Origin: Candidatus Hadarchaeota archaeon
Lineage (GTDB): Archaea; CAYQAE01; CAYVLA01
Assembly: GCA_964621445.1 (NCBI GenBank)
Contig: CAZUNO010000002.1
Location: 136,904 to 200,903, forward strand
DNA length: 64,000 nucleotides
Direction of reading: 5' to 3'
A program made the position numbers and the translations under genes. Of this stretch, positions 18,520 through 49,576 are shown piece after piece (position 1 is the stretch's first letter; every line of letters begins with the position of its first letter). The notes under the pieces are model-generated. The model saw only the letters and a list, made by a program, of their open reading frames with translations. It searched no databases and was not told where the DNA came from.

Positions 18520-19845
18520 TTACCCCTCCTTACTGGTTAACTCTGCTTCCCGATAGAACCTACGGCCTATCATTAGCGAGTAGACCACAAACCCCGTTAC
18601 CAGTCCTACCCCGGTAACTGTAATCCATTCGATGATATAAACCCACATCAGGGCCCCTTGTCTGAGCTTGATACCCTCTTGTGAGAGCTGGTGGAGTTCT
18701 TCGATGAATTCCTCCATCATCTCTCTCGCCTCTTGATAATTCTGAGCAATATATGCATTCCGGGCCTCCTCGGTACGGGAATTTAGCTCCTCGATATCAT
18801 CCATGAGTGGACCGACATTGGCACCGAATTTCTGAATGAAGTCCGCCAGGCTTAGCAAATTTTGGGAATGCTGCCTAAAGGAGGCAAATGATTGCCTAGC
18901 CGAGTGTACCAGCATAACATCTGTGACTATTTCTCTACCCGTACCCAGGTACATCATATTGAACCACATATCCTTCCCGAACTCATTGTCGCTCCACCCC
19001 CTCTCATATGAACTCCAAAAAGGGTACCTTGGTGCATCCGCTACTGACCAGGTCATTGCGTTTCCGTATTCCCAGGACAACACCCAAGGGCGGGTTTTCT
19101 CGGACATCTGCCTACTGAAGTGCATCCAGCCCCATGTATTCACCCCATTCTTTGGTAGCATAATCCTTCCCCCATGTCCTCGCCACTTCTCGAGGCCAAA
19201 TTCGAGGAAAGGAGTGAAAACTGGAGGTAATTCACGATTCAGCTCCACGTGGAAAAGATCGATATTGGGAGCCTCCCGATTTTTGAAGTAGCTGGCAGTG
19301 GCATCCGAATCGCAGGGGAAAACCTCGGACACGGGACTGTCAGCCCAGGGCCCGTACATTAAGTAGTTCTTGCCCATTACCCCTCCGGTATCAGCTATGG
19401 CACAGGCCCCGCCATCGCGTATGGACCGTACCAAAAGGTCTAGCTGGTTTTGGGTGTACATATTTACCAATATCGACGAGAAATGAATCGCGTCATAGCT
19501 CCTCAGCTTGGAATATGAACGGGGAAAGTATATCCTTAGATATCTTCTTATCTCGTCCTTAAACGCGGTTCCGTGGGTCTCGGTCCAGCTTCCCTTGAAC
19601 AACCTTGAGGGAACCATGGAAAATGAAATTCCCGGTTCGGACGAGAGCCAGTCCCTTAGGGGATTCAAGCGGTTATCCACAAGCCCCATGTACAATACCT
19701 TTAATCGACCGTCGCTTTCCTGGGCCAAGGAGGCAGGAAAAACAACCATTACCAGGATGGTTAGGAAAAATAACGGGAGCAAGTACTTGAATTCACCTCT
19801 TTTTGAAGGATCTACTTCCCTGAAAATTCCGGATAACATTGACAT
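18520..19845 (-). CDS. Uncharacterised surface protein, paralogue 1 (GATase1-like head, helical stalk, C-terminal TM)
   Basis: Signal peptide (..ASLA), KVLYMG, LRIYFPRSY, FIQKFGAN, ALMWVYIIEW TM, RRFY tail; motifs shared with four other ORFs in this window. Confidence 0.85.
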   Translation of the reverse strand: MSMLSGIFREVDPSKRGEFKYLLPLFFLTILVMVVFPASLAQESDGRLKVLYMGLVDNRLNPLRDWLSSEPGISFSMVPSRLFKGSWTETHGTAFKDEIRRYLRIYFPRSYSKLRSYDAIHFSSILVNMYTQNQLDLLVRSIRDGGACAIADTGGVMGKNYLMYGPWADSPVSEVFPCDSDATASYFKNREAPNIDLFHVELNRELPPVFTPFLEFGLEKWRGHGGRIMLPKNGVNTWGWMHFSRQMSEKTRPWVLSWEYGNAMTWSVADAPRYPFWSSYERGWSDNEFGKDMWFNMMYLGTGREIVTDVMLVHSARQSFASFRQHSQNLLSLADFIQKFGANVGPLMDDIEELNSRTEEARNAYIAQNYQEAREMMEEFIEELHQLSQEGIKLRQGALMWVYIIEWITVTGVGLVTGFVVYSLMIGRRFYREAELTSKEG

Positions 19846-19920
19846 GAATGGCGGTATATCATCTTGGATAAATTACTTAAATTTGTATGAGAGGTATGGC
19901 TGGGTGACTGGAGGTCTGGA

Positions 19921-20253
19921 TTGGTTAAATTTGAAAATATCGACGCCGCTGATGACGGGATACTCGACCATTATGTGGTCGAGCTTGAGAACGACGTAGG
20001 TACCGGCTCCGCGGCAATTCAGGAACTAAAGATGGATGGCGAGATCATCCCTCCAGAAAAAATTAGGCTGAAGATAGGGAACCAGTCCTGCAAGCCATTC
20101 AAACCTGGGTGCGTTCTGGCCTCTCGTTATGGGGACAAGATCTCCATCGAGGTCGAGATGGAGGGAGGACTCGAACCAGGAGAGCACTCACTGGGAGCCA
20201 AGGTCAAACTAGGGTGGATATGCCGGACCGTGGAATTTAAGGGGTGTATATAG
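19921..20253 (+). CDS. Small beta-sandwich protein (resembles DUF6379/DgpB-like fold)
   Basis: GGAGG SD before TTG; ELKMDGEIIPPEKI...GGLEPGEH pattern. Confidence 0.55.
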   Translation: MVKFENIDAADDGILDHYVVELENDVGTGSAAIQELKMDGEIIPPEKIRLKIGNQSCKPFKPGCVLASRYGDKISIEVEMEGGLEPGEHSLGAKVKLGWICRTVEFKGCI

Positions 20254-20314
20254 CCTTCCTGGCGAGGAAATCTTATTCAAGCCCAAATTTGAGAAGTGAC
20301 CGGAGAATGATAGG

Positions 20315-24139: not shown

Positions 24140-26443
24140 ATGGCATGGGGACAAATAATCTATTTCACACCTCTTATTTCATCTTCAGCAATCTCTGTTG
24201 GGCTGGCCCTTTATGCTTGGAGACGGCATTCCTCGATTGGGAAAAAGGAGTTCTCCTTGCTGATGTTGTCCGTGGCCTGGTGGGCCTTTTTCTACGCCTT
24301 GGAGATGCAATCTAGCTCGCTGGGAAACAAGCTGTTACTGGCCAAGATCCAGTACCTGGGAATCGCTTCCGTACCTTTGATGTGGTCACTCTTTTCCCTC
24401 AGGTATACCGGTCGCGGAACATACCTCACAAAACCCAAGATCGGCCTTTTAGCCATTATTCCATTAACCACCGTTTCACTGGCTTTAACCAACGACTATC
24501 ACGGGCTTCTATGGTCAAATGTCTACCTAGCACAGACAGGAAATCTTGCCTACCTGGCAAAGACCTATGGTTTCTGGTTCTGGATAAATGCAGGATATTC
24601 CTATATTTTGATGATAATTGGGTCATTCCTCCTGCTTTACCATTCGAATAAGCTACCTGTGCTTTACCATGAGCAGGTCACCTGCCTTCTTATAGCCGCC
24701 TTTATGCCCATGATTGGTAATTTTCTTTACATTACTCGAATATCTCCAATGCCAAATATTGACTCCACCCCTTTCAGTTTCACCTTGGCAGGCCTGGCCC
24801 TGGCATGGGGCATATTCAGATATAGAATACTGGATATCGTTCCAGTTGCCAGGGACAAGGTCTTTGAAAAAACCAATGATTTGATCTATTTGCTCGACCG
24901 TCAGCTACGGGTCGTAGACCTTAATCCGGCGGCAGAATCATTGCTGAATGAATCTAGAGGCGGGTTCATCGGGAAGAGGTTGAATCAGGTTATGGATTTT
25001 CCAATTGATATGTCCGATCATATTGATGGAGAACACGGCTTCAAGGATCCTCTATGTATACAGATAGATGATCAGATGCGATTTTTTGATCTAACTGTAT
25101 CCCGCTTAAAGGATAATCAGGGGCGATTCGTGGGTCTTATACTATTCCTGAAGGATATTACCGAACGCAAGATGGTCGAGAATAACCTCAGAAGAACCAC
25201 AAAAAAACTGGATGAAAACGTGCGCCAGAGGACCCTGGAACTGGTGCACACCAACAGGGCCATGAGACAGGAAAATGAAGAAAGGAAGAAGGCCCAGAGA
25301 AAGCTTAAGCTTTCGCAGGAAAAATTGAGAACCACCCTGGATGCCTCTCCCGACTCGATCATCGTTATCGACATAGATGGGAGGATAATTGACTGCAATC
25401 CAGCAACAGCAGATATCTTTGAATATTCCTCCATTGAGGACGTGATAGGCAAGGAGGCTTTTTCCTTCGTATCAAAAGAGGACCTTGACAGGGTTCAATT
25501 CGATCGTCGTACCTGCCTGAACTCCGGGTTTATTCGTAATCATCAATACAAACTGATCACTAGCCACGGAAGAGAATTCCCCGCGGAGGTCTCCGCAAGC
25601 GTGGTCAAGGATTCAACGGGGTCACCATCACTATACGTGGTAATGAGCAGGGACATATCGGAAAGGAAAAGGAATGAAAAGGAACTACGCCGATACTCGG
25701 AAAGACTTGAAGATCTGGTTCAGGAAAAGAGCGAGGAGCTTCGAGATGCTGAAAGGATGGCCGCCATAGGCCAAACCGCTAGCATGGTTGGTCACGACCT
25801 AAGGAATCCCCTGCAGGCAATTTTAAATAACGTATATCTGGCCAGAAAACAATTGACGGGCGAAACGAATGGCGAATCCCTCAAGGGTCGACTAGAAATT
25901 ATACGAGACGAGATACTATACATGAACAAGATCGTATCCGACCTCCAGGACTTCGCCAAGCCACTGAAACCAGAACTCAGCCCAATAAATGTCAAATCCT
26001 TAATTCAAAACATCTTGACTGGATTAAACCTGCCCAAAAAGGTAGATGTGTCTATAGACCTGAAGGATACACTTACCTTAGAGATGGATTCGATGATGAT
26101 GAAGAGGGTGTTAACAAATCTGGTAAATAATGCAATTCAGGCCATGCCTGACGGTGGGAAACTAAAGATTTCGGCCGATGGGGGAAATGGCATAGCCCAT
26201 ATCTCTGTCAGTGACACCGGCACTGGAATCTCCCCCGATGACAAGGAGAAGGTATTCAAGCCCCTTTTCACCACCAAGGCCAAGGGACAGGGATTTGGCC
26301 TTGCTGTCTGTGAACGATTTGTGACCGCTCACCAGGGGAGAATAACGATCGACACCGAACTAAGGGTTGGTACAACTTTCACAATTCATATACCAGCCCA
26401 TCCGAATCATAAAACCCAGGAAGAATCACCAGTTGCGACCTAG
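24140..26443 (+). CDS. Sensor histidine kinase (HisKA_7TM + 2 PAS + HisKA + HATPase)
   Basis: 7TM N-terminus (LTNDYHGLLW), PAS ends KDITERK/RDISERK, H-box HDLRNPL, N-box NLVNNA, DTGTG, LFTTK, GQGFGL. Confidence 0.95.
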   Translation: MAWGQIIYFTPLISSSAISVGLALYAWRRHSSIGKKEFSLLMLSVAWWAFFYALEMQSSSLGNKLLLAKIQYLGIASVPLMWSLFSLRYTGRGTYLTKPKIGLLAIIPLTTVSLALTNDYHGLLWSNVYLAQTGNLAYLAKTYGFWFWINAGYSYILMIIGSFLLLYHSNKLPVLYHEQVTCLLIAAFMPMIGNFLYITRISPMPNIDSTPFSFTLAGLALAWGIFRYRILDIVPVARDKVFEKTNDLIYLLDRQLRVVDLNPAAESLLNESRGGFIGKRLNQVMDFPIDMSDHIDGEHGFKDPLCIQIDDQMRFFDLTVSRLKDNQGRFVGLILFLKDITERKMVENNLRRTTKKLDENVRQRTLELVHTNRAMRQENEERKKAQRKLKLSQEKLRTTLDASPDSIIVIDIDGRIIDCNPATADIFEYSSIEDVIGKEAFSFVSKEDLDRVQFDRRTCLNSGFIRNHQYKLITSHGREFPAEVSASVVKDSTGSPSLYVVMSRDISERKRNEKELRRYSERLEDLVQEKSEELRDAERMAAIGQTASMVGHDLRNPLQAILNNVYLARKQLTGETNGESLKGRLEIIRDEILYMNKIVSDLQDFAKPLKPELSPINVKSLIQNILTGLNLPKKVDVSIDLKDTLTLEMDSMMMKRVLTNLVNNAIQAMPDGGKLKISADGGNGIAHISVSDTGTGISPDDKEKVFKPLFTTKAKGQGFGLAVCERFVTAHQGRITIDTELRVGTTFTIHIPAHPNHKTQEESPVAT

Positions 26444-26455
26444 ATAAAGGTGAAT

Positions 26456-27616
26456 TTAACCTTTTTGTTTCAATTCTATATTCCTCTCAAGCAGAGACCT
26501 CTGCCGTTTATCAAAGCACTCAAGGGAGAGGACTAACAGGAGGGTTGCTCCTTTAGATGAGGCCTTATCCGAGAGATCATATAGACACTTCATTGTAGGT
26601 TCAAACCCGTTATTTATGACCAAGTATTCCAAACCATCTAGGAGGATGGCCGCGCCCTCGGTTTTATCCAGGAAGGAAGAGATGACGCCTCCAACCATCC
26701 CCACGTTCGCCGACCCTAGTGCTTCCTCGTTCAATTTTTCACGGGTGAGCCAGATAATCGGGGTCTGAGTTAGGGCGAAATTTCTTTTAACTGAATCCGG
26801 GGATCTGCGGGTTACGCACAGACCCGGGATATCAATGGACACCATATGTGATAAGGCTCTAAAGGCCTCTTTCTCCGATCTAAAGAGATAGGCCTCTCCT
26901 TTCTCCAGGAGACGTTCTCGATTCACAGAATTATCCCTTGCTCTTTCTTCTTTCCTAGGTTTAAGACTGAATAGCCTGTACTTTTCAGTAGTAATCGAGA
27001 ACCCTATAACGAAAGCCATTGTTGCAAGGGCTGAGAACCCGTCAACCATTTCCGCGACTAGTGGTAAGAGTCTAGTTTCCAATAAGAAATTGTGGACGAT
27101 CTTTGAGCCAACTAAAATTAGCGAACAATAACCCATAATCAAAACGGGTACCTTAAGAACGGGGGTTGAATTTCGTATCTGGAGCCATATTATATATCCC
27201 AATACGATGCCCGAGGCGATAAACCCCACTGCCATGATCCTTGGAACTAGCTTATTTCCTGCTGGTAATGCCAGAACTACGAAACTAAGAATGGCCAATG
27301 GACTGAATACCGCAGCTGTTCCCTTTCTACATGAAAGGAAATCCACCTCTCTTGGATATTTACCCAGAACAAATGCCATAAGGGTAACAATGGCCATTAT
27401 GGCAAGATTATTGATAATAAGGGCTAGAGATCCCGAGCGAAATATCAAGAAAGAATCCAACACAATGAGCAGAGAAGATGCAAGAAGTAGAGTTGGGATA
27501 ATGACTACAATCCATTTCATATGGCTACTTAATTCCCTTCTAGAGATGGATACTCCAACTACTATTGATAGGATTGCCGTACTAATCCACAATGCATCCA
27601 CGGAGCTCAGCAACAA
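26456..27616 (-). CDS. Membrane protein with C-terminal DUF835 (inactive KaiC/RecA-like) domain
   Basis: About 7 TM then GLCVTR, IIWLT, LLDGLEYLVINNGFE, SLLER. Confidence 0.88.
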   Translation of the reverse strand: MLLSSVDALWISTAILSIVVGVSISRRELSSHMKWIVVIIPTLLLASSLLIVLDSFLIFRSGSLALIINNLAIMAIVTLMAFVLGKYPREVDFLSCRKGTAAVFSPLAILSFVVLALPAGNKLVPRIMAVGFIASGIVLGYIIWLQIRNSTPVLKVPVLIMGYCSLILVGSKIVHNFLLETRLLPLVAEMVDGFSALATMAFVIGFSITTEKYRLFSLKPRKEERARDNSVNRERLLEKGEAYLFRSEKEAFRALSHMVSIDIPGLCVTRRSPDSVKRNFALTQTPIIWLTREKLNEEALGSANVGMVGGVISSFLDKTEGAAILLDGLEYLVINNGFEPTMKCLYDLSDKASSKGATLLLVLSLECFDKRQRSLLERNIELKQKG

Positions 27617-27629
27617 ACCCGTTCCTACC

Positions 27630-28307
27630 TTACTCGTAAAGTACGCCTTTTACCTGCAATCCCTCATCCGTTATCTCCAGCAGCCGTTTTCTGAGATCGT
27701 GTTTAGAGCCCCTTAGCTTCTTGATTTGGATATAGCGGTTAACGTCATTAACCGTCTCCTTGAAACCAAGTTCTACCACGCCATCCACAAGATACTCCAA
27801 AGATGTTGGATTTGAAGTCTCTGTGACTAGCACTAGTCGAGAACTAGTTTCAATTGCCAGGTCTAGAATCATCTCTATTGAACACGGTTCCCTCTCCCCC
27901 ACGGTCTGAGCCACTGCATCCCAACTGTCTATCGAGATTATGGGCTCATCAATGTCCGTTATTATTGTGTCCAGAGCCTGAACGAAACCAGGCATGTTAC
28001 CATAACGTAAATTCTTGAGAAGTCCACCATCCTTGGCTGGTCGACTGTTCACAGCATCTATGACCCCGCTTGGTGGCACCGACTTTTTGGCCCAGGGAAA
28101 CATCTCATATAACCTGTCAGGGTCAACTCTGGTTGATACGTACAGACCATTGCCGTTTTCACAGATTTCTTTCAAAAATGTAAGAGTAAATACCGTCTTT
28201 CCCGACCCAGGCGCTCCCTTCACGCATAAGGAGTAACCGGGAAACCTGTTCACCGTGTCGGTTATCTCTTTTGGTAAAGACAAATCTTGACCTCCCTTGT
28301 ACATCAA
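27630..28307 (-). CDS. GvpD-like/KaiC-family P-loop ATPase
   Basis: KGAPGSGKT Walker A, YVSTRV, IDSWD, LEYLVDGVVEL, KKLRG. Confidence 0.85.
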   Translation of the reverse strand: MMYKGGQDLSLPKEITDTVNRFPGYSLCVKGAPGSGKTVFTLTFLKEICENGNGLYVSTRVDPDRLYEMFPWAKKSVPPSGVIDAVNSRPAKDGGLLKNLRYGNMPGFVQALDTIITDIDEPIISIDSWDAVAQTVGEREPCSIEMILDLAIETSSRLVLVTETSNPTSLEYLVDGVVELGFKETVNDVNRYIQIKKLRGSKHDLRKRLLEITDEGLQVKGVLYE

Positions 28308-28334
28308 CCAGCCACTCTATTTAAAAACAAATGC

Positions 28335-28358
28335 ATTTGACTATTTGACTATTTGACC
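28335..28358. repeat. Three tandem 8-bp direct repeats ATTTGACT/ATTTGACT/ATTTGACC
   Basis: Read directly; lies just upstream of a minus-strand TTTTAAATA TATA-like box for the ATPase gene. Confidence 0.7.
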
Positions 28359-28459
28359 TAAGTATCCTTAAAATGGAGCCCCTTTCCTTTGTCCCATTAT
28401 GGGAATTTCCCAATATAGTTGATTATTTTCTAAATTATTTGGAAGTATCCAAGATCCTT

Positions 28460-29124: not shown

Positions 29125-29378
29125 CCACTAACAGAACAGCACCAATTATTTTCATATAATATGATGCCTAACTATGGGTATAGGTTCAATAACTCGAGTT
29201 TGAATAAGAATTCCTACCTTTATCCCCTTTCAATCACCCGACATCTTCATTCCACATAATAGGCCCCCCCAATTTATGGTATTGGTCAAGCCCTTTTCAC
29301 TTATGGTCCAAATCCTGGTTATACGTGATCTTTTGATCCCACCGGGTTGTAATCCTTTACTTGATGACCTTACATACT

Positions 29379-29660
29379 CTATTCAACTTCGCCGAAGCGC
29401 CCTCTAGATATGTTCTTAAGCTCCCTGGACCTAAGCTCCGACACCATATAGTCCAATACTTTATCGGCGGAGGTACCTAATACTTCCTTCAGCTCCCGTT
29501 TGAAGACCTGTGGATTTTGTGGAATCTCTCCACCCATATATTCCAACGCTCGAGAGGCCAGCGAATCGCCCAGGATTTCCACTAGGCTATATTTAGCAAG
29601 ACGACGGAATTCACGAGGAGAGACCAACTTCTTAGATACATCTGCAAATTCATCCTCCAT
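29379..29660 (-). CDS. Small helical protein (DUF3227/NitrOD-like)
   Basis: LVEILGDSLA..NPQVFKRELKEVLG pattern; directly downstream of the response regulator. Confidence 0.6.
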   Translation of the reverse strand: MEDEFADVSKKLVSPREFRRLAKYSLVEILGDSLASRALEYMGGEIPQNPQVFKRELKEVLGTSADKVLDYMVSELRSRELKNISRGRFGEVE

Positions 29661-32161: not shown

Positions 32162-33412
32162 TTGATTAACTCAATTAATATCACCGGTAAATTGAATCAG
32201 TACCTGGATATCCTAGCCAGGATTTGCTTATTTCTCGTATGGATAGCACTGATGTCACCCGCTGTGAACTGTTTTGATGATTCTAACAGAGCAAAGGTCC
32301 TTTACATTGGTGACACCGGCTTTGAAACCTGGCGGGATATCGCCGGAGACCCCCTCTTGATCACCACAGCGGTCCCAGCAAGTGTGGGTCATTTTCCAAG
32401 TGATCAAATTGAAAGGTACATGAGGCAATACATTCCCAGGACTTACACAAGGTACTCATCTGATGTGGACCTGCTCATACTGAGTGATACAGACCGCCAG
32501 CTTTTCACCACGAAGCAACAAACCTGGTTCAAGAAGGGCGTTTTTGAGGAAGGCCAAGGATTAATCATGGCTGGAGGGCTTGAGGCCTTCGGAGGAGCCG
32601 GGTGGGGGAGTTCCTGGGAGGGTTCCTCAGTTGCTGATGTACTCCCCGTGAATCTTTTGACCGGTGAGGTATGGAATCTGCATCCATTCCATGCCAGACC
32701 AACCGAGGAATCGTCAAATCATCCCCTAATCACCTCCCTCCCCTGGAACACTATGCCCACTTTTGGCGGTATGAATAGGGTAACCACCAAGACATGGGCG
32801 GAGGTGCTTCTGAAGGCAGCTGGACCTGGAATTAGCTCCTCCGAGAATCTACCGGTTCTAGTCCATGGGGAAGTGGGGGAGGGTTCATCTCTGGCCCATA
32901 CACCTGACTGGAACCCTGGTTGGGGAGGCAGGGTTATGAGGGAATGGGAGTATTACCCAGATTATCTGATTAATATGGCATATCTGATGGTCGGTGTTTC
33001 CATACCGCAGAATCTGCAGTTATCACACCTGGTGAGAACCGAGTTGGCAAACCATATTCAGCGGATGAGCGTCACCCTGTCCTTTCTCGAGTTCGCCGAG
33101 GATTTTGGCGCCAACATACACCCCCTGGAAATGCGTCTATCAAAGGCAGCCCAAATGAAGGATGAGGCCGATGCTTTGTATATCGATCAGGATCTTGAGG
33201 CTGTTCTGGAAAAGATGAGGCAGGTCCGGGATCTGATGGATGATATAAACCAGCAGGCCATAGAACTCAAGGACAGGGCCCTTGTCTGGGTCTACGCCGT
33301 GGAGTGGCTGGCGGTCACCGGAACCTTCCTTGTGTGTGGGTTCATTCTGTGGACTTTGATGGTCCGTAAGAGATTCTATAAAAGAGTGGAGATGACCAAA
33401 TTACAGGGTTAA
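32162..33412 (+). CDS. Uncharacterised surface protein, paralogue 2
   Basis: KVLYIGD, RQYIPRTY, MAGGLEAFGG, LPV, HPLI..LPW, FAEDFGAN, ALVWVYAVEW, RKRFY. Confidence 0.87.
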   Translation: MINSINITGKLNQYLDILARICLFLVWIALMSPAVNCFDDSNRAKVLYIGDTGFETWRDIAGDPLLITTAVPASVGHFPSDQIERYMRQYIPRTYTRYSSDVDLLILSDTDRQLFTTKQQTWFKKGVFEEGQGLIMAGGLEAFGGAGWGSSWEGSSVADVLPVNLLTGEVWNLHPFHARPTEESSNHPLITSLPWNTMPTFGGMNRVTTKTWAEVLLKAAGPGISSSENLPVLVHGEVGEGSSLAHTPDWNPGWGGRVMREWEYYPDYLINMAYLMVGVSIPQNLQLSHLVRTELANHIQRMSVTLSFLEFAEDFGANIHPLEMRLSKAAQMKDEADALYIDQDLEAVLEKMRQVRDLMDDINQQAIELKDRALVWVYAVEWLAVTGTFLVCGFILWTLMVRKRFYKRVEMTKLQG

Positions 33413-33468: not shown

Positions 33469-34800
33469 TTAATCATCCCCAATCATGTGAGTGGTTTTGA
33501 CAGCATGGTATAATTTGCGGCGGATCATAACCGACCACAGAAAAACCCCCGCGATCATGGCCGTCCCGCTTATCACCAGCCACTCAATGAGATACACCCA
33601 AAAGAGGGCGCGTTGTTTGACTTCCATAGCTTTTACCTCTAGCTCGTCAAGCTTTTGGTGAACCTGGTCATATATCTCCAGTGCCTGTTCAAAATTCAAT
33701 TCAATATATGCGGGCATTGCACTCTGGGATAAATCCTCGACCTCATCCAGATCCTTGACCAGGTGAAGTGTATTTGCGCCGAAGGAATCACAGAATTCGA
33801 TTAGGCTCACGATTAACGACTTCCTATTCATTACATCGAACATGCTCTCCCTCAGGCGATGCGCGAGTTCGACATCCTGGGGTACCGGTCGACGATCCAT
33901 GTAGATCATGAGATTTGCTCCAAAATCCAGGGCATATTCCCAGGGATCAGCTCTCGTGCACATGCTGTGGGACTGACCGGGCTCTGAGCTGGGGCCTATT
34001 ATCTCCCCGCTCACGGCAAAGGTACGAGCGCCGCCGTCTAGTTCCCAGGTAACCATTGCCGGATGCTGGGAAAAGGAAACGCTCTCAATATAGGCCAGCA
34101 TTTGAGCCCCCGCCCTGAGCTTGACCAAGTTGTGGTGAAAATTACTCATGAAAGGCTGTTTTCGGTCCCAGGGAAGGCTACTCATGAAATCATTCTCTGG
34201 CTCATTGATCTTCATGAAGAGGCGGTACTTCGGTTTCATGATGTAGGTATTCTCTACACACTCCACCGGGAGTATGTCCCCCACGGCTGTACCGCCCCAT
34301 GAAGGACGGCCAAATGCACCCCCAAAACTTTCCCAACCCCCGAACATCACCAAACCCAACCCACCCCTTCTGGGCCCCCGCGCCAGCATCTCTATGTACT
34401 TATCACCCAAAGCCAAAGTATTGGCATTGGCCAGCACGATAACGTCAAAACGGGTATTAAGATCCTGGTAGGTGCGAGGCATATATAGACGGATGAATCG
34501 GTAGACATCGGTCTCGGCGTCCGCCCTCATTGCCGGTGCCGGACCAAATCCAGCCCAGTCCCTGAGCGTAGCCTGCACGAAGCTCATACGGAACAAGGGA
34601 TCTGATCTCATCCACCAAAAGGGGGCAGAACGAGCCAGACACCCGATGTATATTACCCCAATCCTTTCATCATTGGATGGGGCTGCCATGGCCATAGGTC
34701 CCAAGGCAAGGAGGGCTACCAAGATAATGAACCCAACATACATTCCCCGGATTGGATGGACCAGGCGGCTTTCCGACCCTTTTCCCCTATCTTGAATCAA
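33469..34800 (-). CDS. Uncharacterised surface protein, paralogue 3
   Basis: VIYIG, RLYMPRTY, MFGGWESFGG, ILPVEC, LPW, FCDSFGAN, ALFWVYLIEW, RRKLY. Confidence 0.87.
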   Translation of the reverse strand: MIQDRGKGSESRLVHPIRGMYVGFIILVALLALGPMAMAAPSNDERIGVIYIGCLARSAPFWWMRSDPLFRMSFVQATLRDWAGFGPAPAMRADAETDVYRFIRLYMPRTYQDLNTRFDVIVLANANTLALGDKYIEMLARGPRRGGLGLVMFGGWESFGGAFGRPSWGGTAVGDILPVECVENTYIMKPKYRLFMKINEPENDFMSSLPWDRKQPFMSNFHHNLVKLRAGAQMLAYIESVSFSQHPAMVTWELDGGARTFAVSGEIIGPSSEPGQSHSMCTRADPWEYALDFGANLMIYMDRRPVPQDVELAHRLRESMFDVMNRKSLIVSLIEFCDSFGANTLHLVKDLDEVEDLSQSAMPAYIELNFEQALEIYDQVHQKLDELEVKAMEVKQRALFWVYLIEWLVISGTAMIAGVFLWSVMIRRKLYHAVKTTHMIGDD

Positions 34801-34931: not shown

Positions 34932-36203
34932 CTATGATTTGAAGCTTGTAGTTTTCACTTCTTTATAGGCCGACCTTCTCACCATCAGCGTCCAGAGTAC
35001 CGCGCCGCTTAACATGCTGGTCCCAGAAACGGTAAACCACTCAATTACGTAAACCCAGAAAAGTGCCTCATCCTTGGCCTCCATGGCCTGGGTCGATGCC
35101 TTGTCAAGGCTTTCCAGCCCGTTCTCCACGGCGGCCAGTGCTTCCTCGTACTCTCCGTTAACGTAAAATCGGATTACCTTTTTCCTACTTTCTTCAGACT
35201 CCATCAGGGTATTCGATGCCTTCTGGGTGTTTGCACCGAACTTCTCTGCGAAATCGATAACTGAAATCGCATACCTCCTCACGGAGAAAAACCTTGTCAG
35301 ACTGGTTCGAAGTTCCATTACCAGGGACATGTCCTGGGGTATTTCAACTCTGGCTATCCAGTAAATCATATTGCTAACTATAATGGGAGCGAAATCGGAT
35401 CTATGGAAATCCTCTGGACCGTTCCCTCCCCAGTCATGTACAAAGGCCTCGCTCATACCCTCACCCATTTCGCTATAAACCAGCACCGGACTGTTTGCAG
35501 GATACCTGTCGGTTTTCCCGACCACCACAGAGCCCTGCCTCGCGGTCACCCTGTTTCGGCAGAACAGTGGGATGGTGTTCCAGGGAATGTTCTTCACCAG
35601 CGGATGGTCCTTATGCTCCTCGGGAACCACAAGATGGTACTTCTTGTCCAGAGTCCAGAAATCCCTGTGACAATCAACCGGGAGTATCTCTCCAATGGTG
35701 GTGCCCTGCCAGCTGGGATGATTTAGAGAACCTCCAAAGGACTGGGGACCACCTGCCATCAGGAAGCCAAGGCCGTATTCCAGAACACCCTTATTTACCC
35801 ACCGCTGGATTTTCTCCGGGAAAAACGGTTCTCTGGCATCCGTTATTATCACCACATCGTATCCTTCGGTAACTTGCCTTTCCACCCGGGGGAAGTAAAC
35901 CCTTAGTGTCCTGGCCGCCACGCTTATGGTCTGATATTCCCCGGTAAGAAACTCCACCGGGACCGGATTCAAATCTATCATGGGGTCTTCGGCCATTAAT
36001 GGGGTGACAAAGCCGGCCTCCATAAGTGCATCGCCCATGAACAGGACACGGATCATGCCCGTCTCCGGGTCGACCTTTGGCTCGACGCTCAAAGCTATGT
36101 TGAGAGCCAGAAGCATGACGAGGTAGGCCAACATGATCTTCATGATAGAGGTCAGGTAAGATGCTTCCCAAAATCTGGGTAGATTGATCCTATCATCGTT
36201 CAA
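34932..36203 (-). CDS. Uncharacterised surface protein, paralogue 4
   Basis: KVDPETG.IRVLFMGD, RVYFPR, MAGGPQSFGG, ILPVDC, HPLV..IPW, FAEKFGAN, ALFWVYVIEW, RRSAY. Confidence 0.87.
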   Translation of the reverse strand: MNDDRINLPRFWEASYLTSIMKIMLAYLVMLLALNIALSVEPKVDPETGMIRVLFMGDALMEAGFVTPLMAEDPMIDLNPVPVEFLTGEYQTISVAARTLRVYFPRVERQVTEGYDVVIITDAREPFFPEKIQRWVNKGVLEYGLGFLMAGGPQSFGGSLNHPSWQGTTIGEILPVDCHRDFWTLDKKYHLVVPEEHKDHPLVKNIPWNTIPLFCRNRVTARQGSVVVGKTDRYPANSPVLVYSEMGEGMSEAFVHDWGGNGPEDFHRSDFAPIIVSNMIYWIARVEIPQDMSLVMELRTSLTRFFSVRRYAISVIDFAEKFGANTQKASNTLMESEESRKKVIRFYVNGEYEEALAAVENGLESLDKASTQAMEAKDEALFWVYVIEWFTVSGTSMLSGAVLWTLMVRRSAYKEVKTTSFKS

Positions 36204-39227: not shown

Positions 39228-40362
39228 AGGGATTCTCCCATTTCAATACTATATCCGCTATCTCGGGTCGCATTATCTCCGGAGGGGGCCTTTCATTTCG
39301 ATCCAGCATTTCCCGGATCCTGGTACCGCTGAAGTTGATGTGATCCTCCGGAGGGTGGGGGCAGGTCTTTTCATTTGCCACCCCTCTGCATCTCCTGCAG
39401 TGGAAAAATGACTTGAAGAATAATGGAGAAATTCCCAAGTCCGGGAACTCCTCAAAGATCTCCTGAGCTGCAAAGGGGGGGTAATAATTTCCAACCCCAG
39501 CGTGGTCCCTGCCCACGATAAAATGTGTGCATCCGTGGTTCTTCCTCATAATTGCGTGCAGTATGGCCTCCCGGGGACCGGCATACCTCATCTCAAACTG
39601 GAGTATGACCAGGACAGCTCTTTCCTTCAGATAATAATTCTCCATGAGGGCCTGGTAGGCCTCGATTATCAAGTCATCCTTGAAATCCCCTGACTTCTTC
39701 CTCCCTATTACGGGGTTTATCATCACCCCATCAGTAAAGCTTAGTGCCGTTTTTTGTAGGTACTCATGTCCCAGATGGGGCACGTTTCTGGTCTGGAAAC
39801 CGACAACGGTGCGCCAACCCTTTTCCCTGAATAGTATCCTGGTTTCAAGAGGCATCAGGTGCAGATTAGGGTATGAGCTGGGAGGTGGGTCCACTAGGGA
39901 TATGTCCCCTCCAATTAGAAAATCTCCGCGGGAAAAGGTCTTGGCAACTCCCGGATGTCTCGAGTCCTTGGTTCCAAATACCGCCTGAGCATGACGCTTC
40001 TTATCCAGGGGGAAAATCTCCTCAACATCCATTACCGCTATCAAATCTCCCTGGTTAGTCAAAGCCACGCGGTCCTGTTCATCAAGTTCTCTGGCCCTGC
40101 TTTCTTCCACATCGAGAATTATGGGGATGGTCCACGGAACATCATTTGAGAGCCTCATATGATCGAGGATATTCTCGTAATCCCGGGAACCCACAAAGCC
40201 GGTAAGAGGTGAAAATACACCCCTGGCGATATTCTGGCAATCCATGGCCAGCTCGTCATTGATGACTATGCTGGGAAGCTCCCGGGATTCCTCCTCCAGA
40301 CGATCTCTTTCTCTCCCCCTAGCTACCCTGTTGGTTAGAGACCCTCCATGGGGACGGATCAT
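39217..40362 (-). CDS. sat: Sulfate adenylyltransferase (ATP sulfurylase)
   Basis: PHGG, FSPL, FQTRNVPHLGHE, YAGPREA, VGRDHAG, SGT. Confidence 0.97.
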   Translation of the reverse strand: MIRPHGGSLTNRVARGRERDRLEEESRELPSIVINDELAMDCQNIARGVFSPLTGFVGSRDYENILDHMRLSNDVPWTIPIILDVEESRARELDEQDRVALTNQGDLIAVMDVEEIFPLDKKRHAQAVFGTKDSRHPGVAKTFSRGDFLIGGDISLVDPPPSSYPNLHLMPLETRILFREKGWRTVVGFQTRNVPHLGHEYLQKTALSFTDGVMINPVIGRKKSGDFKDDLIIEAYQALMENYYLKERAVLVILQFEMRYAGPREAILHAIMRKNHGCTHFIVGRDHAGVGNYYPPFAAQEIFEEFPDLGISPLFFKSFFHCRRCRGVANEKTCPHPPEDHINFSGTRIREMLDRNERPPPEIMRPEIADIVLKWENPFVQ

Positions 40363-43103: not shown

Positions 43104-45194
43104 ATGAAAACATCCTGGACAAGACATCTCCTAACTATAGCCGACCTCGGTATCTATAGCCGAGAACAGGTTCTGAACCTCGACCCTGCGATGGTGGCTG
43201 AGAGGAAGAGGAAGTTGGGCTTCAATATGGAGCACCTGAACTGTAGCGATGTATATGGAGGAGAGAGGGGGGTCTTCTTCTTTCAAACTGGAATCGCCGA
43301 AGAGATTCCCCGGGATTTCATTGGAGAGTACCTTCCCGAAGCCCACTCCAGGGGCATCAGGGTGCTGATCTACTATAACGTACACTGGCTGGATAGGGAC
43401 TTCGGGATGAGAAACCCGGACTGGCTACAGGTTTCCAGGGATGGCAGGACCAAGGAGGACCTTTACGGGTCGGGTTGTGCACCCTGTGTCAATTCAGGCT
43501 GGCGAGAATGGTCTTTCAGAGGGATTCGAGACCTAGCAGACTATGATATCGATGGTATTTTCCTCGATGGGCCCATCTTCATCTCCGATGGCTGTTACTG
43601 TGAAAGCTGTCGGGAGTCCTTCCGGAACGAATACGGAACCACGCTTCCCAGGGAGCAAAAAAGAGACGACCCGACCTGGAGACAATTTCTTGATTTCCGG
43701 TACGAGAGCATAGCCAGGTATATGGAAGATGCTTCCAGAAATCTAAAGGAAATTCGGCCCGATGCGGTTATCTATATGAATTCATCAGGGGTCTCCCCTT
43801 CCTGGCCAGCTGCCAGGGATAACAGAAGGCTTCTGACACATCAGGATATTCTCGGGGCTGAAGGCGGCTTCCTCTACCATGACCTGCGAACCTCTCCCCT
43901 CTGGAAACCGGGAATGTGTGCTAAACTTCTGGAAACCCAAGCGGGAGGAAAACCAACAGTGGTTTTTCTCGCTGGAGCTAACAAAGGGTGGGACGATTAC
44001 CTATTAACCCCCGCAGAGACCAGGCTCCTATTTGCGGACACCGTTGCCAACGGAGCCAATCCCTGGTACGGTATTCCATTCAATCGGTCGGATAGACTAA
44101 GCGCCCAGGCAGCGGGGGAGATGAATCGGTTTCTCCAGGAATTCTCTGAATATTTTGAAGGAACTCGACCTTTAAGTAAGATAGCACTGTTATGGTCGAC
44201 ACGTACCGCCGATTTCTACAAGGCAACGGTGCCCTTCACCGACTTCACGCCGGACGGGGATAAAATGGAGAGAGAAGGTGCCGGTGATTTTTCCTCGAGC
44301 TTCAGGGGATGCTATGAGTCCCTGGTCCGAAGCCATCTTCCATTTGAGGTCCTGGACGAAATCGCGCTGAGGAATGGGTCCCTTGACAGATATGACCTTC
44401 TCATAACCCCCAACTGTGCTTGCCTTTCAGGAGAGTCATGCGACTGTATAGAGAGGTATGTTTATCGCGGAGGCAATCTCCTGGCCAGCTTTGAGACCTC
44501 GCTATATAATCAAAACGGTTCCCGCCTTGAAAATTTCGGGCTTTCAAGGGTTTTGGGCGTTGACACCGGTAGAGGGAAATTCGGACCCATGAAGATAGAT
44601 TACATGGCCCTAACCGAGAACCACCCGCTTTTTGAGGGGCTGACCGATGATAACCTACCCTGTCCCATTTACGGCATGGAGGTTATGCCAAACACAAGCA
44701 AGCCCCTGGCCAAGTTCAGGGAAAAAATGAAATCGAGATACTCCAAACTTCCTCCGATCTCCGATCTGTCTGCAATTACCCTCAACAGCTATGGAAAGGG
44801 GAAAGCCCTTTACCTATCGGGTAATTTCTTTGAACACTACGAGAACTACCACAATCCCGATTATCGCCTTTTTATGTCTAATGCTGCTAGAAGCCTCTCC
44901 TCTCCTCTGGTTCACCTGCAGAACTGCCCGACATCGGTTGAGATTACCATGAGAACGAGGGAGCCGGATACCCTTCTCATTCACCTGGTCAATTTTACCG
45001 GCGAAATGACCAGACCAATTGAGTCGGTAACTCCGGTACATGATGTGGAGGTTAAACTAAATGGCTTCCATAATTTGAAATCTGCCCGATCGATTTCTCC
45101 ATCCCGGCCTTCTAGAGATCTAGAGCCCTTGGGGAATAACCAGCTGAAACTTGATCTGGAAAGCGAGTACAAGATGGTTATAATGGAGAAGTGA
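43104..45194 (+). CDS. Glycoside hydrolase-like protein (GHL6/GH42-type TIM barrel + trimerisation domain)
   Basis: NPDWLQ, CVNS, DGIFLDG, CYCESC, C-terminal GATase-like trimerisation region, IHLVN. Confidence 0.8.
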   Translation: MKTSWTRHLLTIADLGIYSREQVLNLDPAMVAERKRKLGFNMEHLNCSDVYGGERGVFFFQTGIAEEIPRDFIGEYLPEAHSRGIRVLIYYNVHWLDRDFGMRNPDWLQVSRDGRTKEDLYGSGCAPCVNSGWREWSFRGIRDLADYDIDGIFLDGPIFISDGCYCESCRESFRNEYGTTLPREQKRDDPTWRQFLDFRYESIARYMEDASRNLKEIRPDAVIYMNSSGVSPSWPAARDNRRLLTHQDILGAEGGFLYHDLRTSPLWKPGMCAKLLETQAGGKPTVVFLAGANKGWDDYLLTPAETRLLFADTVANGANPWYGIPFNRSDRLSAQAAGEMNRFLQEFSEYFEGTRPLSKIALLWSTRTADFYKATVPFTDFTPDGDKMEREGAGDFSSSFRGCYESLVRSHLPFEVLDEIALRNGSLDRYDLLITPNCACLSGESCDCIERYVYRGGNLLASFETSLYNQNGSRLENFGLSRVLGVDTGRGKFGPMKIDYMALTENHPLFEGLTDDNLPCPIYGMEVMPNTSKPLAKFREKMKSRYSKLPPISDLSAITLNSYGKGKALYLSGNFFEHYENYHNPDYRLFMSNAARSLSSPLVHLQNCPTSVEITMRTREPDTLLIHLVNFTGEMTRPIESVTPVHDVEVKLNGFHNLKSARSISPSRPSRDLEPLGNNQLKLDLESEYKMVIMEK

Positions 45195-47437: not shown

Positions 47438-47445
47438 TCCCGGTT

Positions 47446-48249
47446 CTATTTAGGCCTAAGGGCCCCGTTATCAACCACATAATTCTCCTTGAGTTCCTCG
47501 ACTCTTGACTCCAACTTCTTCTCCTGCTCCGGTGTCAGCGGGCGTAGCTCTTCCCCCACCTCTGCGTCTTCCTCCACCTCTTCCAGGTTTGATATGCCCA
47601 CAATGGCACTTGGAACCCCTCTACTCCAGATGTAATTGAGAGACTGAGAAACATCTGTCAACACCCCCTTGCCCAGGGGCTTCATGGCCACTATGCCCAC
47701 ATCCTTTTCGAGAGCTCTGGGAATCAGCTTATCCTCCGCCCTGTTAAATACATAATTAAAGGGGACAACCAGGTTTGAGAAAAGATCTCGTTCGATTGCC
47801 CGGGCTAGGAAATCGGGGTAGTGATCGGTAATCCCAATGTGGTCAACGGTCCCTTCCTCCTTAGCATCACGCAGGACCTGGAATCCCCCCTTCTTTCCCA
47901 GGCCCTGTTCGAAGCTATTTTCCCTTATCCTGAATTGGGCAATATCCAGGTGATCGGTCCCCAGCATCTCGAAGGCCTGGTTAAGCTGTTTCTCGGTCTG
48001 AAGCCTTTTGGACCCGAATAGCTTTACATTTAGAATGCATTCCTCACGGCGGCCCTCTATTGCCTTCCCTACCTTCAGCGCGCTGTCTCCATAGGTGGGT
48101 GATGTGTGTATATGGTTTATTCCCAGATCCAGGGCTCGTTCAACGATCCTTACTGCCCTCTTTTTCTCCACGTCCTTGATGGGTATGCCTCCAAAGCCCA
48201 CTACCGACACCTTGAGTCCGGTTCTGCCTAACTCCCTGTACTCCATCAT
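47446..48249 (-). CDS. Aldo/keto reductase family protein
   Basis: LGRTGLKVS, GFGG, IGIT.H, AMKPLG. Confidence 0.88.
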   Translation of the reverse strand: MMEYRELGRTGLKVSVVGFGGIPIKDVEKKRAVRIVERALDLGINHIHTSPTYGDSALKVGKAIEGRREECILNVKLFGSKRLQTEKQLNQAFEMLGTDHLDIAQFRIRENSFEQGLGKKGGFQVLRDAKEEGTVDHIGITDHYPDFLARAIERDLFSNLVVPFNYVFNRAEDKLIPRALEKDVGIVAMKPLGKGVLTDVSQSLNYIWSRGVPSAIVGISNLEEVEEDAEVGEELRPLTPEQEKKLESRVEELKENYVVDNGALRPK

Positions 48250-48334
48250 CTTTCGCCTACCCGGGCTGGTATAGTCCTCTCTATTAGATATTCGCCAAAA
48301 GAGCCAATGGCGCCTCTGGAGGGAAAGGCCTTCC

Positions 48335-49576
48335 TCAATTTAGGAATCGGGTCTGCCCGGCCCTCTTGTAAAGACGCCTCCTGATCATCAGAGTGTAGAG
48401 CAAGTAGCCGCAGATCATTAGCGTACCGGTCACCGAGCTCCATTCGATTGCATAGATCCACAGCAGAGCTCGGTCCTTGACCTCCATTGCCCGGTCGACC
48501 ATTTCCTGGAGATCTCGGTTTAGGTTCTCGACCCCCTCGAGAGCACCTTGCAGTTCTAGATCTATGTAAAGATCGTCGACTTTCTCCCGTTCCGAATCTA
48601 TTTCGCCCAGATCTCGAAGAAGAGGATTGGTATTGGCATTGAATTTGTCGGCGAAATCTATTATCGATAGGACGAGAAGTCTTCTTGAATCGTAGGTGGA
48701 GAACTCCTCTCGCACGGTCTTGTCCATGGTGGGGTCCGGTATTCCCGTCTGGGCCGAATAGTAAATGAAGGATGAAAAGACGTGCGGAGCCCATTCCCAA
48801 GCACCTCCCCTAGTCGAGAATGCATATGCTGCCCGGCCTCCCCAGTCGTGGACCACGGCCAGCCCCCTTCCCGACCCCACATCAATATATGCAAGCGCCG
48901 GGCGGCCCGGGGGATGGGAATCGGTCTCCGCTACCACCACGGCGCCTTGTTTGTCGAATACCCGGTTATGGGCGACCCAGATTGCCCTCTCCCAGGGCAC
49001 TCCAGATACCAGCGGATGTCCAGGCTTCACGATATTGACCTTGAAAAGAAAACGGGACCAGCCCTTGCCATCATCTGCGCATTCAACGGGTAGGATTTCT
49101 CCTATAACCGTCTTACACCAGTTATTATTGACTCCTCGCCAATCAGTTCCCCCGAAGGACGCCGGGTCGTCAGCCATTACAAATCCCATGCCCCCTCCAA
49201 CTACCCCATCACGGGTCCAGAAAAGGAATTTTCCCAGGTGATACTGAAAAGCGCCCGTTATGCAAACAACGTCCATATCCCTTACCAGGTCCTCCTCCCT
49301 CCTGGGCAAATAGAGGCGATAGTACCTCATGGTCTCACGGGTACCTATGATCGCCACCTCACTGGGGACCGGATACATCTCGATCCTCGGGTCATCGAAG
49401 AAGAAGGTGGCAGCAAATCCCCCGCGGTTAAAGGCGTCTCCAATATGGAGCAGTCGGATCCTCCCGTCTTCGGGATCCGTTTTTCCCTCTCCCGTCAAAA
49501 GTAGCCCGTTGAGGAGGAGATAGAATAAGATGGCCCTTAGGTAACTAGACCGGGAAAACTCCCCCTTAAATTTCAT
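48335..49576 (-). CDS. Uncharacterised surface protein, paralogue 5
   Basis: KTDPEDGRIRLLHIGD, RLYLPR, MADDPASFGG, ILPVEC, HPLV..VPW, FADKFNAN, ALLWIYAIEW, RRRLY. Confidence 0.87.
   Translation of the reverse strand: MKFKGEFSRSSYLRAILFYLLLNGLLLTGEGKTDPEDGRIRLLHIGDAFNRGGFAATFFFDDPRIEMYPVPSEVAIIGTRETMRYYRLYLPRREEDLVRDMDVVCITGAFQYHLGKFLFWTRDGVVGGGMGFVMADDPASFGGTDWRGVNNNWCKTVIGEILPVECADDGKGWSRFLFKVNIVKPGHPLVSGVPWERAIWVAHNRVFDKQGAVVVAETDSHPPGRPALAYIDVGSGRGLAVVHDWGGRAAYAFSTRGGAWEWAPHVFSSFIYYSAQTGIPDPTMDKTVREEFSTYDSRRLLVLSIIDFADKFNANTNPLLRDLGEIDSEREKVDDLYIDLELQGALEGVENLNRDLQEMVDRAMEVKDRALLWIYAIEWSSVTGTLMICGYLLYTLMIRRRLYKRAGQTRFLN

Follow-up and report, generated by a model that had tools for sequence, protein, structure and literature searches.

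A 64,000-nucleotide stretch of contig CAZUNO010000002.1 from the Candidatus Hadarchaeota archaeon assembly GCA_964621445.1 (the whole stretch is referred to here as the window) carries five genes of a protein family that has 148 loci in the genome as a whole (G000; 3.21 Mb in 89 contigs). We propose that these loci encode about 150 type-I membrane proteins, in each of which an export signal would be followed by an extracellular GATase1-like (PF07090/GIFT-type) head, a stalk of invariant length whose last helix would run straight into a single membrane helix, and a short basic cytoplasmic tail. We tentatively read the family as a repertoire of nonenzymatic binding heads that may plug, via one shared foot, into a common membrane partner.

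The five genes had been singled out by a first-pass annotation made from the letters of the DNA, and all were found at exactly the coordinates given there, with the motifs claimed for them. They are copy 1 (18520..19845, minus strand, 441 amino acids [aa]), copy 2 (32162..33412, plus strand, 416 aa), copy 3 (33469..34800, minus strand, 443 aa), copy 4 (34932..36203, minus strand, 423 aa), and copy 5 (48335..49576, minus strand, 413 aa). The copies align over their full length, with 23 to 28% identity to copy 1 and 34 invariant columns. The motifs R-x-Y-x-P-R, F-x-x-x-F(G/N)AN, and AL-x-W(V/I)Y-x-x-EW are each present in all five, as are a membrane helix with a conserved Gly and, after it, a basic tail with a Tyr. 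The head motifs are more patchily distributed: LPV and PW occur in four copies each, HPL occurs in three, and the GG..(S/A)FGG loop is found in copies 2 to 4. The translations also bear out that copy 5 has DD instead of GG and that copy 1 lacks the loop.

Copy 4, the only copy whose structure was modeled, served as the reference for residue numbering. On the minus strand, it comprises an N-terminal hydrophobic segment (residues 21 to 40, 36084..36143; modeled within helix 11-38), a GATase1-like alpha/beta head (residues 45 to 289, 35337..36071) whose best-conserved stretch is the RxYxPR motif (residues 101 to 106, 35886..35903), a three-helix stalk of fixed length (residues 292 to 379, 35067..35330) with the F-x-x-x-FGAN turn at residues 318 to 326, and a C-terminal "foot" (residues 380 to 423, 34935..35066). 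The foot consists of the juxtamembrane AL-W-Y--EW motif, the membrane helix (residues 390 to 408), and the basic tail RR-LY--V--T. Met21 is as plausible a start for copy 4 as the listed one, which yields the 423 aa. By alignment, the corresponding C-terminal 135-aa stalk-and-anchor modules of the other copies lie at 18523..18927 (copy 1, minus strand), 33005..33409 (copy 2, plus strand), 33472..33876 (copy 3, minus strand), and 48338..48742 (copy 5, minus strand). The sequence of 33070-36400 (run X1) and most of 32000-36400 (run X2) was identical in contigs from public DNA runs of low depth (~5). A look for RNA runs covering 32162-36203 returned none.

The first-pass annotation had suspected that the five genes belong to a much larger genome-wide family, and this proved correct. 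A hidden Markov model (HMM) of the five copies matched 164 stop-to-stop open reading frames (ORFs) of the genome, corresponding to the 148 loci, so the alternative that only these few copies exist does not hold. Intact, full-length copies account for 117 loci; of the others, 16 are broken into two ORFs, 10 run off contig ends, and 5 are internal partial copies (1 nearly complete and 4 C-terminal relics). The split copies may be pseudogenes or, at a depth of ~5, assembly errors. The family loci occupy 180.5 kb, or 5.6% of the genome, and lie on 50 of the 89 contigs. In an all-against-all clustering of 3142 crude gene calls, the family was the largest paralogue cluster, with 145 genes versus 44 in the next.

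To follow the family beyond this genome, 40 relatives, drawn from a collection that holds five species genomes of the phylum, were searched with the five-copy profile. Strong matches were obtained in three other genomes of the same taxonomic family (G001 to G003). A sister-family genome (G004) gave three weak head-type matches (best E value, 1.3e-11), one further genome gave a marginal match (6.4e-4), and 35 had no match. With copy 4 as the query, there were 159 matches in G000, 147 in G001, 116 in G002 (91% complete), at least 161 in G003 (where 150 of 223 candidates were scored), and 1 marginal match in G004. Counting with the C-terminal stalk-and-anchor profile, as had been suggested at the outset, gave 145 matches in G000, 138 in G001, 93 in G002, and 150 in G003; none of 12 candidates in the sister-family genome matched. 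When the same 135-residue profile was run against 1.84 billion representative proteins, 461 matched at an E value of ≤1e-3 and 256 at ≤1e-30, and 149 of the 150 matches listed bear the module at the C-terminal end of proteins of ~400 to 470 aa or fragments. The top match, the 2761-aa protein P0126, was rejected as a compositional false positive, since its repetitive helical sequence matches 20 unrelated Pfam families. The homologues are named "uncharacterized membrane protein" or "hypothetical protein" at their source or, in three cases, carry a label naming Theionarchaea. The family is confined to one lineage.

The heads had been assigned to the class-I-amidotransferase-like fold of PF07090 (GATase1_like, formerly DUF1355), and Pfam, profile-versus-PDB, and structure matches all agree with this assignment. 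Copies 2 to 5 exceed the curated PF07090 cutoff of 27 bits with E values of 1e-16 to 6e-7 (copy 2, 1.1e-16 and 61.6 bits; copy 3, 5.8e-7 and 29.8 bits; copy 4, 1.1e-11 and 45.3 bits; copy 5, 4.5e-7 and 30.1 bits), while copy 1 has no Pfam match. NCBIfam returned no match to any of the five. Among 20 further diverse paralogues, 5 were above the cutoff and one fell below it at 22.9 bits, so that 9 of the 25 tested copies reach the cutoff and 16 do not. A FastTree phylogeny of the 117 intact copies resolved three major clades of 9, 46, and 62 members. All nine Pfam-positive copies are in the 46-member clade, which includes copies 2 to 5; none of 10 tested copies of the 62-member clade (copy 1 and nine others) and none of 3 from the 9-member clade reached the cutoff. 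The loss of the loop from copy 1 is thus real but is not a peculiarity of that gene, which belongs to a 62-member Pfam-negative clade. A profile of the copy 1 clade matched a profile of the copy 4 relatives with 100% probability (E value of 1e-81 over 368 columns), and copy 1 is therefore a full-length homologue. Against PDB sequences, the copy 1 clade profile gave a marginal match to 2gk3 (E value of 0.03), so the homology of this clade is carried by the family profile instead.

Structure prediction and a Foldseek search on the head, which the first-pass annotation had recommended, were carried out for copy 4. The AlphaFold2 model (89 sequences; pLDDT, 92; pTM, 0.85) has an N-terminal helix (residues 11 to 38), an alpha/beta head (residues ~51 to 283), and helices at 292-321, 327-348, and 352-412, with the membrane span inside the last of these; the predicted extracellular part of that helix is roughly 38 residues long. 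Foldseek matched the model to 2gk3 with an E value of 8.6e-12. With VIA-align, the head gave Z scores of 24.6 each against 2gk3 and 3rht (rmsd, 2.1 to 2.2 over ~210 residues [209 for 2gk3]; 24 to 25% identity). The family profile run against PDB sequences returned the same top three as Foldseek, namely, 2gk3 (2.2e-20), 3rht (1.4e-19), and 3soz (5.7e-16). Weaker structural matches of the head were to ThuA-like proteins (Z score of 16.6), the GH42 middle domain (15.2), the N-terminal domain of IFT52 (15.0), and chains of the oligosaccharyltransferase (OST) complex (human OST-A chain 6s7o_G, 14.0; yeast chain 6c26_B, 11.9). Going by chain length, these two chains are probably OST48 and Wbp1, respectively.

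The heads lack a conserved catalytic triad and, judging from their sequences, are apparently noncatalytic. At the nucleophile elbow (position 152), the 117 copies carry G in 45 cases, S in 43, M in 7, and D in 5, and never predominantly Cys, in keeping with the claim that the catalytic Cys is missing. His200 is present in 21 of the 117 copies. The elbow Cys and the His and Glu of a class I glutamine amidotransferase are not conserved across these copies, and no standard catalytic site has been kept, there being no conserved nucleophile, His, or acid. The heads are rich in Trp (3.2 to 3.7% versus 1.5% genome-wide) and acidic (median pI of 5.27, with 13 of 117 copies above 7). Basic heads, looked for as a sign of sulfated-polymer binding, were not seen. 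Ahead of the head, an uncharged N-terminal run of at least 12 residues (median, 17) is present in 109 of 115 copies and ends ~6 residues before the first strand, in examples often with small residues (SYA, VFA, AEA). We infer that this segment is a cleavable Sec signal peptide.

We next mapped conservation as mean column entropy over the 117 intact copies. The lowest values were obtained for the RxYxPR loop (0.90 bits, without length variation; frequencies, R 0.96, Y 0.98, P 1.00, and R 0.99), the juxtamembrane segment (1.02 bits), and the FGAN turn (1.10 bits), followed by the membrane helix (1.63 bits) and the tail (1.92 bits). The stalk helices, at 2.6 to 2.9 bits, are about as variable as the head core. 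The most variable parts, at 3.1 to 3.5 bits, are the loops after strands 1, 3, and 4 and segment 183-216, which also carry the indels; in folds of this type, the edge that bears these loops is the edge where active sites lie. Between positions 292 and 408, there is no indel in any of the 117 copies, and the minimum, median, and maximum lengths of each segment are the same. Median pairwise identity rises from 22% in the head to 34% over residues 290 to 423 and 47% over the last 52 residues (372 to 423). The EW/anchor region is therefore the best conserved, as had been claimed, and anchor and tail are indeed conserved; for the stalk, the claim of conservation stands for length and not for sequence. 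Within this genome, HMMs of the foot (one of the C-terminal module and one of the helix plus tail) matched only family loci, except for two weak 80-aa ORFs, and a head HMM found no copy without a foot, fragments excepted. From the order of the helices, the FGAN turn is expected near the juxtamembrane motif, and the conserved pieces would then form one membrane-proximal foot, with RxYxPR as the candidate joint between head and stalk.

The ectodomains avoid N-glycosylation sequons. Family proteins contain 32 N-x-S/T sequons versus 177.7 expected by composition (observed/expected ratio [O/E] of 0.18), and 90 of 118 contain none at all. Among control classes set by a crude hydrophobicity rule, the other proteins of the genome with a signal-like N terminus had an O/E of 1.91 (n = 305), and proteins without a signal or membrane helix had an O/E of 0.91 (n = 1444). 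The 181 public family proteins gave an O/E of 0.13. Since the family ratio is far below the neutral cytoplasmic level, selection is needed to explain it, and such selection implies that the glycosylation machinery has access to the ectodomain, which must be kept glycan-free. Thirteen of the 32 sequons fall at aligned position 247-248 (copy 4 numbering), perhaps the one site at which the proteins can accept, or need, a glycan, and 13 fall at aligned positions ≤46, ahead of the head. The sequon-bearing character of a surface-layer (S-layer)-type glycoprotein was thus not found in the predicted proteins. The genome has two STT3/AglB paralogues side by side in divergent orientation (C32:7184-9560). 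Such a pair is present in three of the four family-bearing genomes, no STT3 match was found in the other (91% complete), and the sister-family genome has one match. No family gene adjoins the pair in G000, the nearest being ~13 kb away.

The copies are old. The nearest in-genome paralogue of a copy shows a median identity of 53%, no pair exceeds 79%, and only 2 of 17 adjacent family pairs are nearest relatives. Synonymous sites have reached saturation even in the 11 closest independent pairs (synonymous divergence [dS] of >1), so the ratios of nonsynonymous to synonymous divergence (dN/dS), based on 5 to 8 pairs with estimable dS per region, are rough; they were 0.15 for the head, 0.15 for the variable loops, 0.20 for the stalk, and 0.13 for the foot. 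The comparison of head and stalk that had been proposed as a check thus showed that the head does not evolve faster. Counterparts in other genomes are close. Copy 1 has one in another genus at 59% identity; copy 2 has counterparts at 52 to 60%, its best in-genome paralogue being at 52%; and copy 4 has counterparts in other genera at 56 to 61% versus 38 to 41% for its best in-genome paralogues. For four of the five window copies (copies 1, 2, 4, and 5), the counterpart from another genus is at least as close as the best in-genome paralogue. The closest relative of copy 3 is an in-genome paralogue on contig C15 (77% identity, with cross-genome counterparts at 56 to 59%), a younger duplicate. These data show that the copies are under purifying selection and mostly retained as orthologues across genera, a stable and ancient repertoire, which argues against the fast-varying surface coat that the first-pass annotation had offered as one explanation. 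In a separate case, two copies 7 kb apart (C38:2112-3431 and C38:10637-11944) differ with a dS of ~0.3 in stalk and foot and ~1.5 in the head, which suggests gene conversion limited to the 3′ part.

The surroundings of the five copies in the window are heterogeneous and include DegT aminotransferases, a GFO/IDH/MocA oxidoreductase, a flippase-like protein, a seven-transmembrane (7TM) histidine kinase, two DUF835 proteins, a response regulator, a sulfate-activation set, a glycosidase-like protein, and an epimerase. As had been stated, the copies are not in operons with enzymes; no conserved enzyme operon surrounds them in the window or genome-wide. No 7-mer was found upstream of ≥10 of 116 copies, a weak negative result given that start codons were set crudely. 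We also examined which gene clusters lie within two genes of a family locus, considering clusters with at least three such neighbors. Sulfatases were mildly enriched (12 of 44; P = 0.013, uncorrected). Of the nine clusters tested, c6 alone stood out, as 7 of its 14 genes are near a family locus (P = 0.0013). On the tree, the family members that have a c6 neighbor do not group together (304 of 500 shuffles were as clustered), so c6 was ruled out as a general partner.

The c6 genes encode N-terminally anchored proteins of ~280 aa with a membrane helix and beta-sandwich domains (model pLDDT, 80.6), for which Foldseek returned weak matches only, to adhesins and arrestins (TM-scores of ≤0.18). Five of them follow a family gene on the same strand. 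A second side family, c12, consists of 10 genes of ~325 aa. Its proteins start with a signal and a distant GATase1-like head and continue through a short coil into a C-terminal helix unlike that of the main family; c12 matches the family head profile with 96% probability (E value of 1.9e-9) and branches outside the family. Eight of the 10 c12 genes adjoin a c6 gene (contigs C10, C13, C15, C45, C4, and C6; for example, C15:49442-51285). Unlike the main family, c6 and c12 are both sequon-rich (O/E of 1.75 for c12).

Between copies 1 and 2, in the part of the window with the lowest G+C content (0.44 to 0.46 versus ~0.50 to 0.53), a signaling cluster at 24140-31728 holds a 7TM-receptor histidine kinase with PAS domains, two DUF835 membrane proteins, a GvpD/KaiC-like ATPase, and a response regulator. 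The DUF835 proteins, the kinase, and the response regulator were considered as partners and rejected; the DUF835 cluster has two members, both in the window, so there is no genome-wide link. The sulfate-activation set (36311-40362, minus strand) lies directly downstream of copy 4 and comprises an adenosine 5′-phosphosulfate (APS) kinase (36311-36847), an alkaline-phosphatase/phosphodiesterase-type enzyme (36844-38208), a DHH-family protein with a DHHA1 domain (38205-39227), and an ATP sulfurylase with a PUA-like domain (39217-40362), all on the minus strand. The set could supply 3′-phospho-APS (PAPS) for sulfating the cell's own glycans. At 43104-45194 (plus strand), a 696-aa glycosidase-like protein (GHL6/GHL10) contains a GH42-type middle domain, of the same fold class as the family head. 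Copy 1 is flanked by a small ORF (19921-20253, plus strand) that matches the C-glycoside deglycosidase beta subunit at 27.1 bits versus a cutoff of 27.6 bits and by the GFO/IDH/MocA oxidoreductase (17422-18420, minus strand); such enzymes act in oxidative glycoside cleavage.

The other expansions of the genome point to life on complex, probably sulfated, glycans. After the family, the next largest clusters are sulfatases (44 genes), ABC ATPases (41), URO-D-like proteins (40), GFO/IDH/MocA proteins (31), and xylose-isomerase-like TIM barrels (19); there are also 12 DegT aminotransferases. We take this paralogue profile to resemble that of sulfated-glycan-degrading Planctomycetes and Kiritimatiellia. 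First-look, unconfirmed sulfatase candidates number 52, 22, 26, and 42 in the four family-bearing genomes and 3 in the sister-family genome, and the runs that bear this DNA are labeled microbial mat. The genome also encodes two exosortase/archaeosortase homologues (PF09721, 61.3 bits each), neither of which reaches the cutoff of a named archaeosortase type. One of them (C19:27284-28000, minus strand) precedes a split family gene (C19:25944-27241, locus L045) on the same strand by 43 bases, with a gene for a CehA/McbA-type metallohydrolase further upstream.

The mechanism that we tentatively propose for these proteins has two parts. Each paralogue would recognize its own extracellular ligand via the variable head loops, and all paralogues would dock via the same foot (FGAN turn, EW motif, membrane helix, and RR-LY-V-T tail) to one partner or assembly. 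The likeliest ligands, to judge by the lifestyle that the genome suggests, would be glycans or other constituents of the mat matrix. Docking to one shared membrane partner, one of the possibilities raised in the first-pass annotation, fits the data; processing by a protease or sortase is unlikely. Several observations weigh against a repertoire of docked binding heads. No partner was found, and neighboring genes are heterogeneous in the window and genome-wide. In the closest pairs, head dN is 0.21 versus 0.24 for the stalk; as the head does not change faster, head specificity is not marked by diversifying selection. The acidic heads do not favor binding of sulfated polyanions by charge alone, the evidence that ties the family to glycan breakdown comes from a single lineage, and sequon avoidance may have other causes, such as tight packing. 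Finally, the membrane-distal position of the variable loops and the placement of RxYxPR at the head-stalk junction rest on strand topology rather than on measured contacts. A more specific version of the proposal, which we consider unlikely as it stands, is that the foot is the plug of an undescribed archaeal multireceptor system, in which ~150 sequon-free lectin-like heads, each for a different component of the sulfated mat matrix or of another cell's surface, would all sit on one membrane hub (a transporter, a signaling protein, or a glycosyltransferase such as AglB). Such a system would resemble Wbp1/OST48, where partner subunits within the eukaryotic OST clasp a single helix.

The same architecture could instead serve as a mosaic surface canopy, which we judge somewhat unlikely. 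Structural, interchangeable units of equal stalk geometry would then form a protein layer at a fixed height, with the foot providing lateral packing or lipid contact. The invariant length of stalk and anchor in all 117 copies, which would set all heads at one height, speaks for such a layer, as do the very large genomic investment (5.6%), the lack of a partner gene, and the avoidance of sequons over the whole ectodomain, which suits closely packed surfaces. However, paralogues that are old, under purifying selection, and orthologously kept exceed what space filling needs, and a regular lattice through heads with a median identity of 22% is unlikely. Archaeal S-layer proteins, moreover, are usually glycosylated, and the other exported proteins of this genome are sequon-rich (O/E of 1.91), whereas the family avoids sequons. 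It is improbable that the heads are diversified extracellular enzymes, that is, a new catalytic variant of the amidotransferase-like fold acting, for example, on glycans or peptides, with paralogues differing in substrate. The fold superfamily does contain many hydrolases, the genome is rich in sulfatases and sugar-converting enzymes, Ser occupies position 152 in 43 of 117 copies, and polar or aromatic head residues (R101, Y103, R106, D116, W165, D291, and R299) are conserved. Nevertheless, the canonical sites have no conserved nucleophile, His, or acid, and variability is highest, with indels, in the canonical active-site loops. The best-conserved head motif precedes strand 3 and, by fold topology, would lie at the opposite edge of the sheet, and the closest solved relatives (2gk3, 3rht, and 3soz) have no assigned activity in their entry titles.

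Two further explanations assign the C-terminal module to known kinds of machinery. In the first, which is decidedly improbable, the proteins would serve a membrane glycosylation machine much as Wbp1/OST48 does, as accessory subunits whose foot docks to AglB or another lipid-linked-sugar transferase, whose heads recruit donors or acceptors, and which avoid sequons because of proximity to the transferase. The combination of a signal, a GIFT/GATase1-like outer domain, a single C-terminal helix, and a short basic tail parallels Wbp1/OST48 as described in PMC7226087. The strong sequon avoidance, the matches of OST chains to the model (Z scores of 14.0 for human and 11.9 for yeast), and the divergent STT3 pair in three of four family-bearing genomes, as against one STT3 match in the sister-family genome, point the same way. 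Those chains, however, score below ThuA-like proteins, GH42, and IFT52, a match at the level of fold only; ~150 accessory subunits would be without precedent; no family gene lies beside the STT3 pair; and the family-bearing genome that is 91% complete has no STT3 match. In the second, the C terminus would be a cleaved sorting signal of the archaeosortase/exosortase kind and the mature protein lipid-anchored or released. We regard this as highly improbable, despite the tripartite look of motif (EW), membrane helix, and Arg cluster and despite the two sortase-family homologues, one of them directly upstream of a split family gene on C19. With ~14% of nonfamily genes at most two genes away from a family locus, one such adjacency among two sortase genes is expected fairly often by chance. 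Sortase signals are common to diverse proteins, whereas this genome has the C-terminal module on one kind of protein only; no NCBIfam sorting-domain model matches the five copies even at an E value of ≤1; a conserved tail of 13 to 15 residues follows the helix; and the stalk helix is modeled as continuous with the membrane helix, without a flexible linker.

The family matters for several reasons. One uncharacterized family fills 5.6% of a genome, and no gene family in a whole archaeal lineage is larger, yet we found no description of it in print. Searched in full text, the terms PF07090, DUF1355, COG5426, and GATase1_like led to the Pfam database paper and nothing else. Titles and abstract openings from the literature on Theionarchaea, and passages of PMC9258230, do not mention the family, although papers beyond the library searched may do so; a search for Theionarchaea together with sulfatase returned nothing; and no archaeal protein family is the subject, by title and abstract opening, of the papers that combine archaea, sulfatases, microbial mats, and sulfated polysaccharides. 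Most members are invisible to Pfam, which misses 16 of 25 tested copies and sees one clade of three. The design itself combines differing heads, a stalk of exact length, and a private, near-invariant anchor with a surface that avoids N-glycosylation while other exported proteins are sequon-rich. Should binding of matrix glycans by the heads and docking of the foot to a shared partner both hold, the family would be a model for large-scale substrate recognition in a single-membrane archaeon, and it would provide a function for the GATase1-like/GIFT domain class, to which none has been assigned in bacteria or in the eukaryotic OST. The multireceptor version, if true, would be an archaeal counterpart, on a GIFT-type domain, of the large glycan-receptor arrays of polysaccharide-degrading bacteria. 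New here are the census of loci, the finding that the stalk lacks indels, the mapping of where conservation peaks, the controlled demonstration of sequon avoidance, the orthologue and dN/dS evidence, the three-clade structure, the c12/c6 side family, and the OST48/Wbp1 parallel.

Among known systems, the solved PF07090 members 2gk3 (Salmonella STM3548), 3soz (STM1381), and 3rht (Planctomyces limnophilus) are homologous to the head. As in these proteins, the GG..SFGG, LPV, and HP..PW motifs align and there is no catalytic Cys. The relatives are proteins of ~250 residues without a stalk or anchor, the two from Salmonella being titled cytoplasmic, whereas the family has fused an exported domain to a three-helix stalk, a private anchor, and a tail and has ~150 copies. 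PF07090 has no assigned function. The ThuA-like domain (PF06283) and the GH42 middle domain, the next-best structural matches, both come from sugar metabolism but are soluble or internal domains; PF06283 gave no Pfam match in the 25 copies, and a precomputed PF06283 label is carried by one public homologue of copy 4 and one of c12. The GIFT domains of GldG/ABC_transp_aux and IFT52 (Z score of 15.0) share the fold class of the family head. GldG is anchored by hydrophobic segments at both ends of its outer domain. ABC_transp_aux (PF09822) had no Pfam match in the 25 copies, and no ABC genes were among the enriched neighbor clusters with at least three neighbors, ABC-2 linkage not having been searched separately.

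The anchor resembles archaeosortase/exosortase signals such as PGF-CTERM and PEP-CTERM in that a motif, a membrane helix, and an Arg cluster are likewise found on many proteins of one genome. It differs in being private to one family, with a long conserved tail and no flexible linker, and PGF-CTERM, PEF-CTERM, and other NCBIfam models had no match at the C terminus of the five copies (E value of ≤1). In overall organization, SusD-like proteins, chemoreceptors, and solute-binding proteins offer an analogy, since dozens to hundreds of old, conserved paralogues combine a variable ligand-facing part with a constant docking part. These repertoires have no homology to the family and a different fold, and the family has no partner gene beside each copy. 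By analogy, the closest documented functional precedent may be the OST subunit Wbp1/OST48. The likeness is at the level of fold, with no sequence match in the PDB search; Wbp1 is encoded by one gene per genome versus the ~150 family copies, and it has a second luminal domain where the family has a helical stalk. According to PMC7226087, Wbp1/OST48 carries a noncatalytic GIFT domain for which sugar binding has been proposed, and helices of Ost2 and Swp1 clasp the single membrane helix of the subunit.

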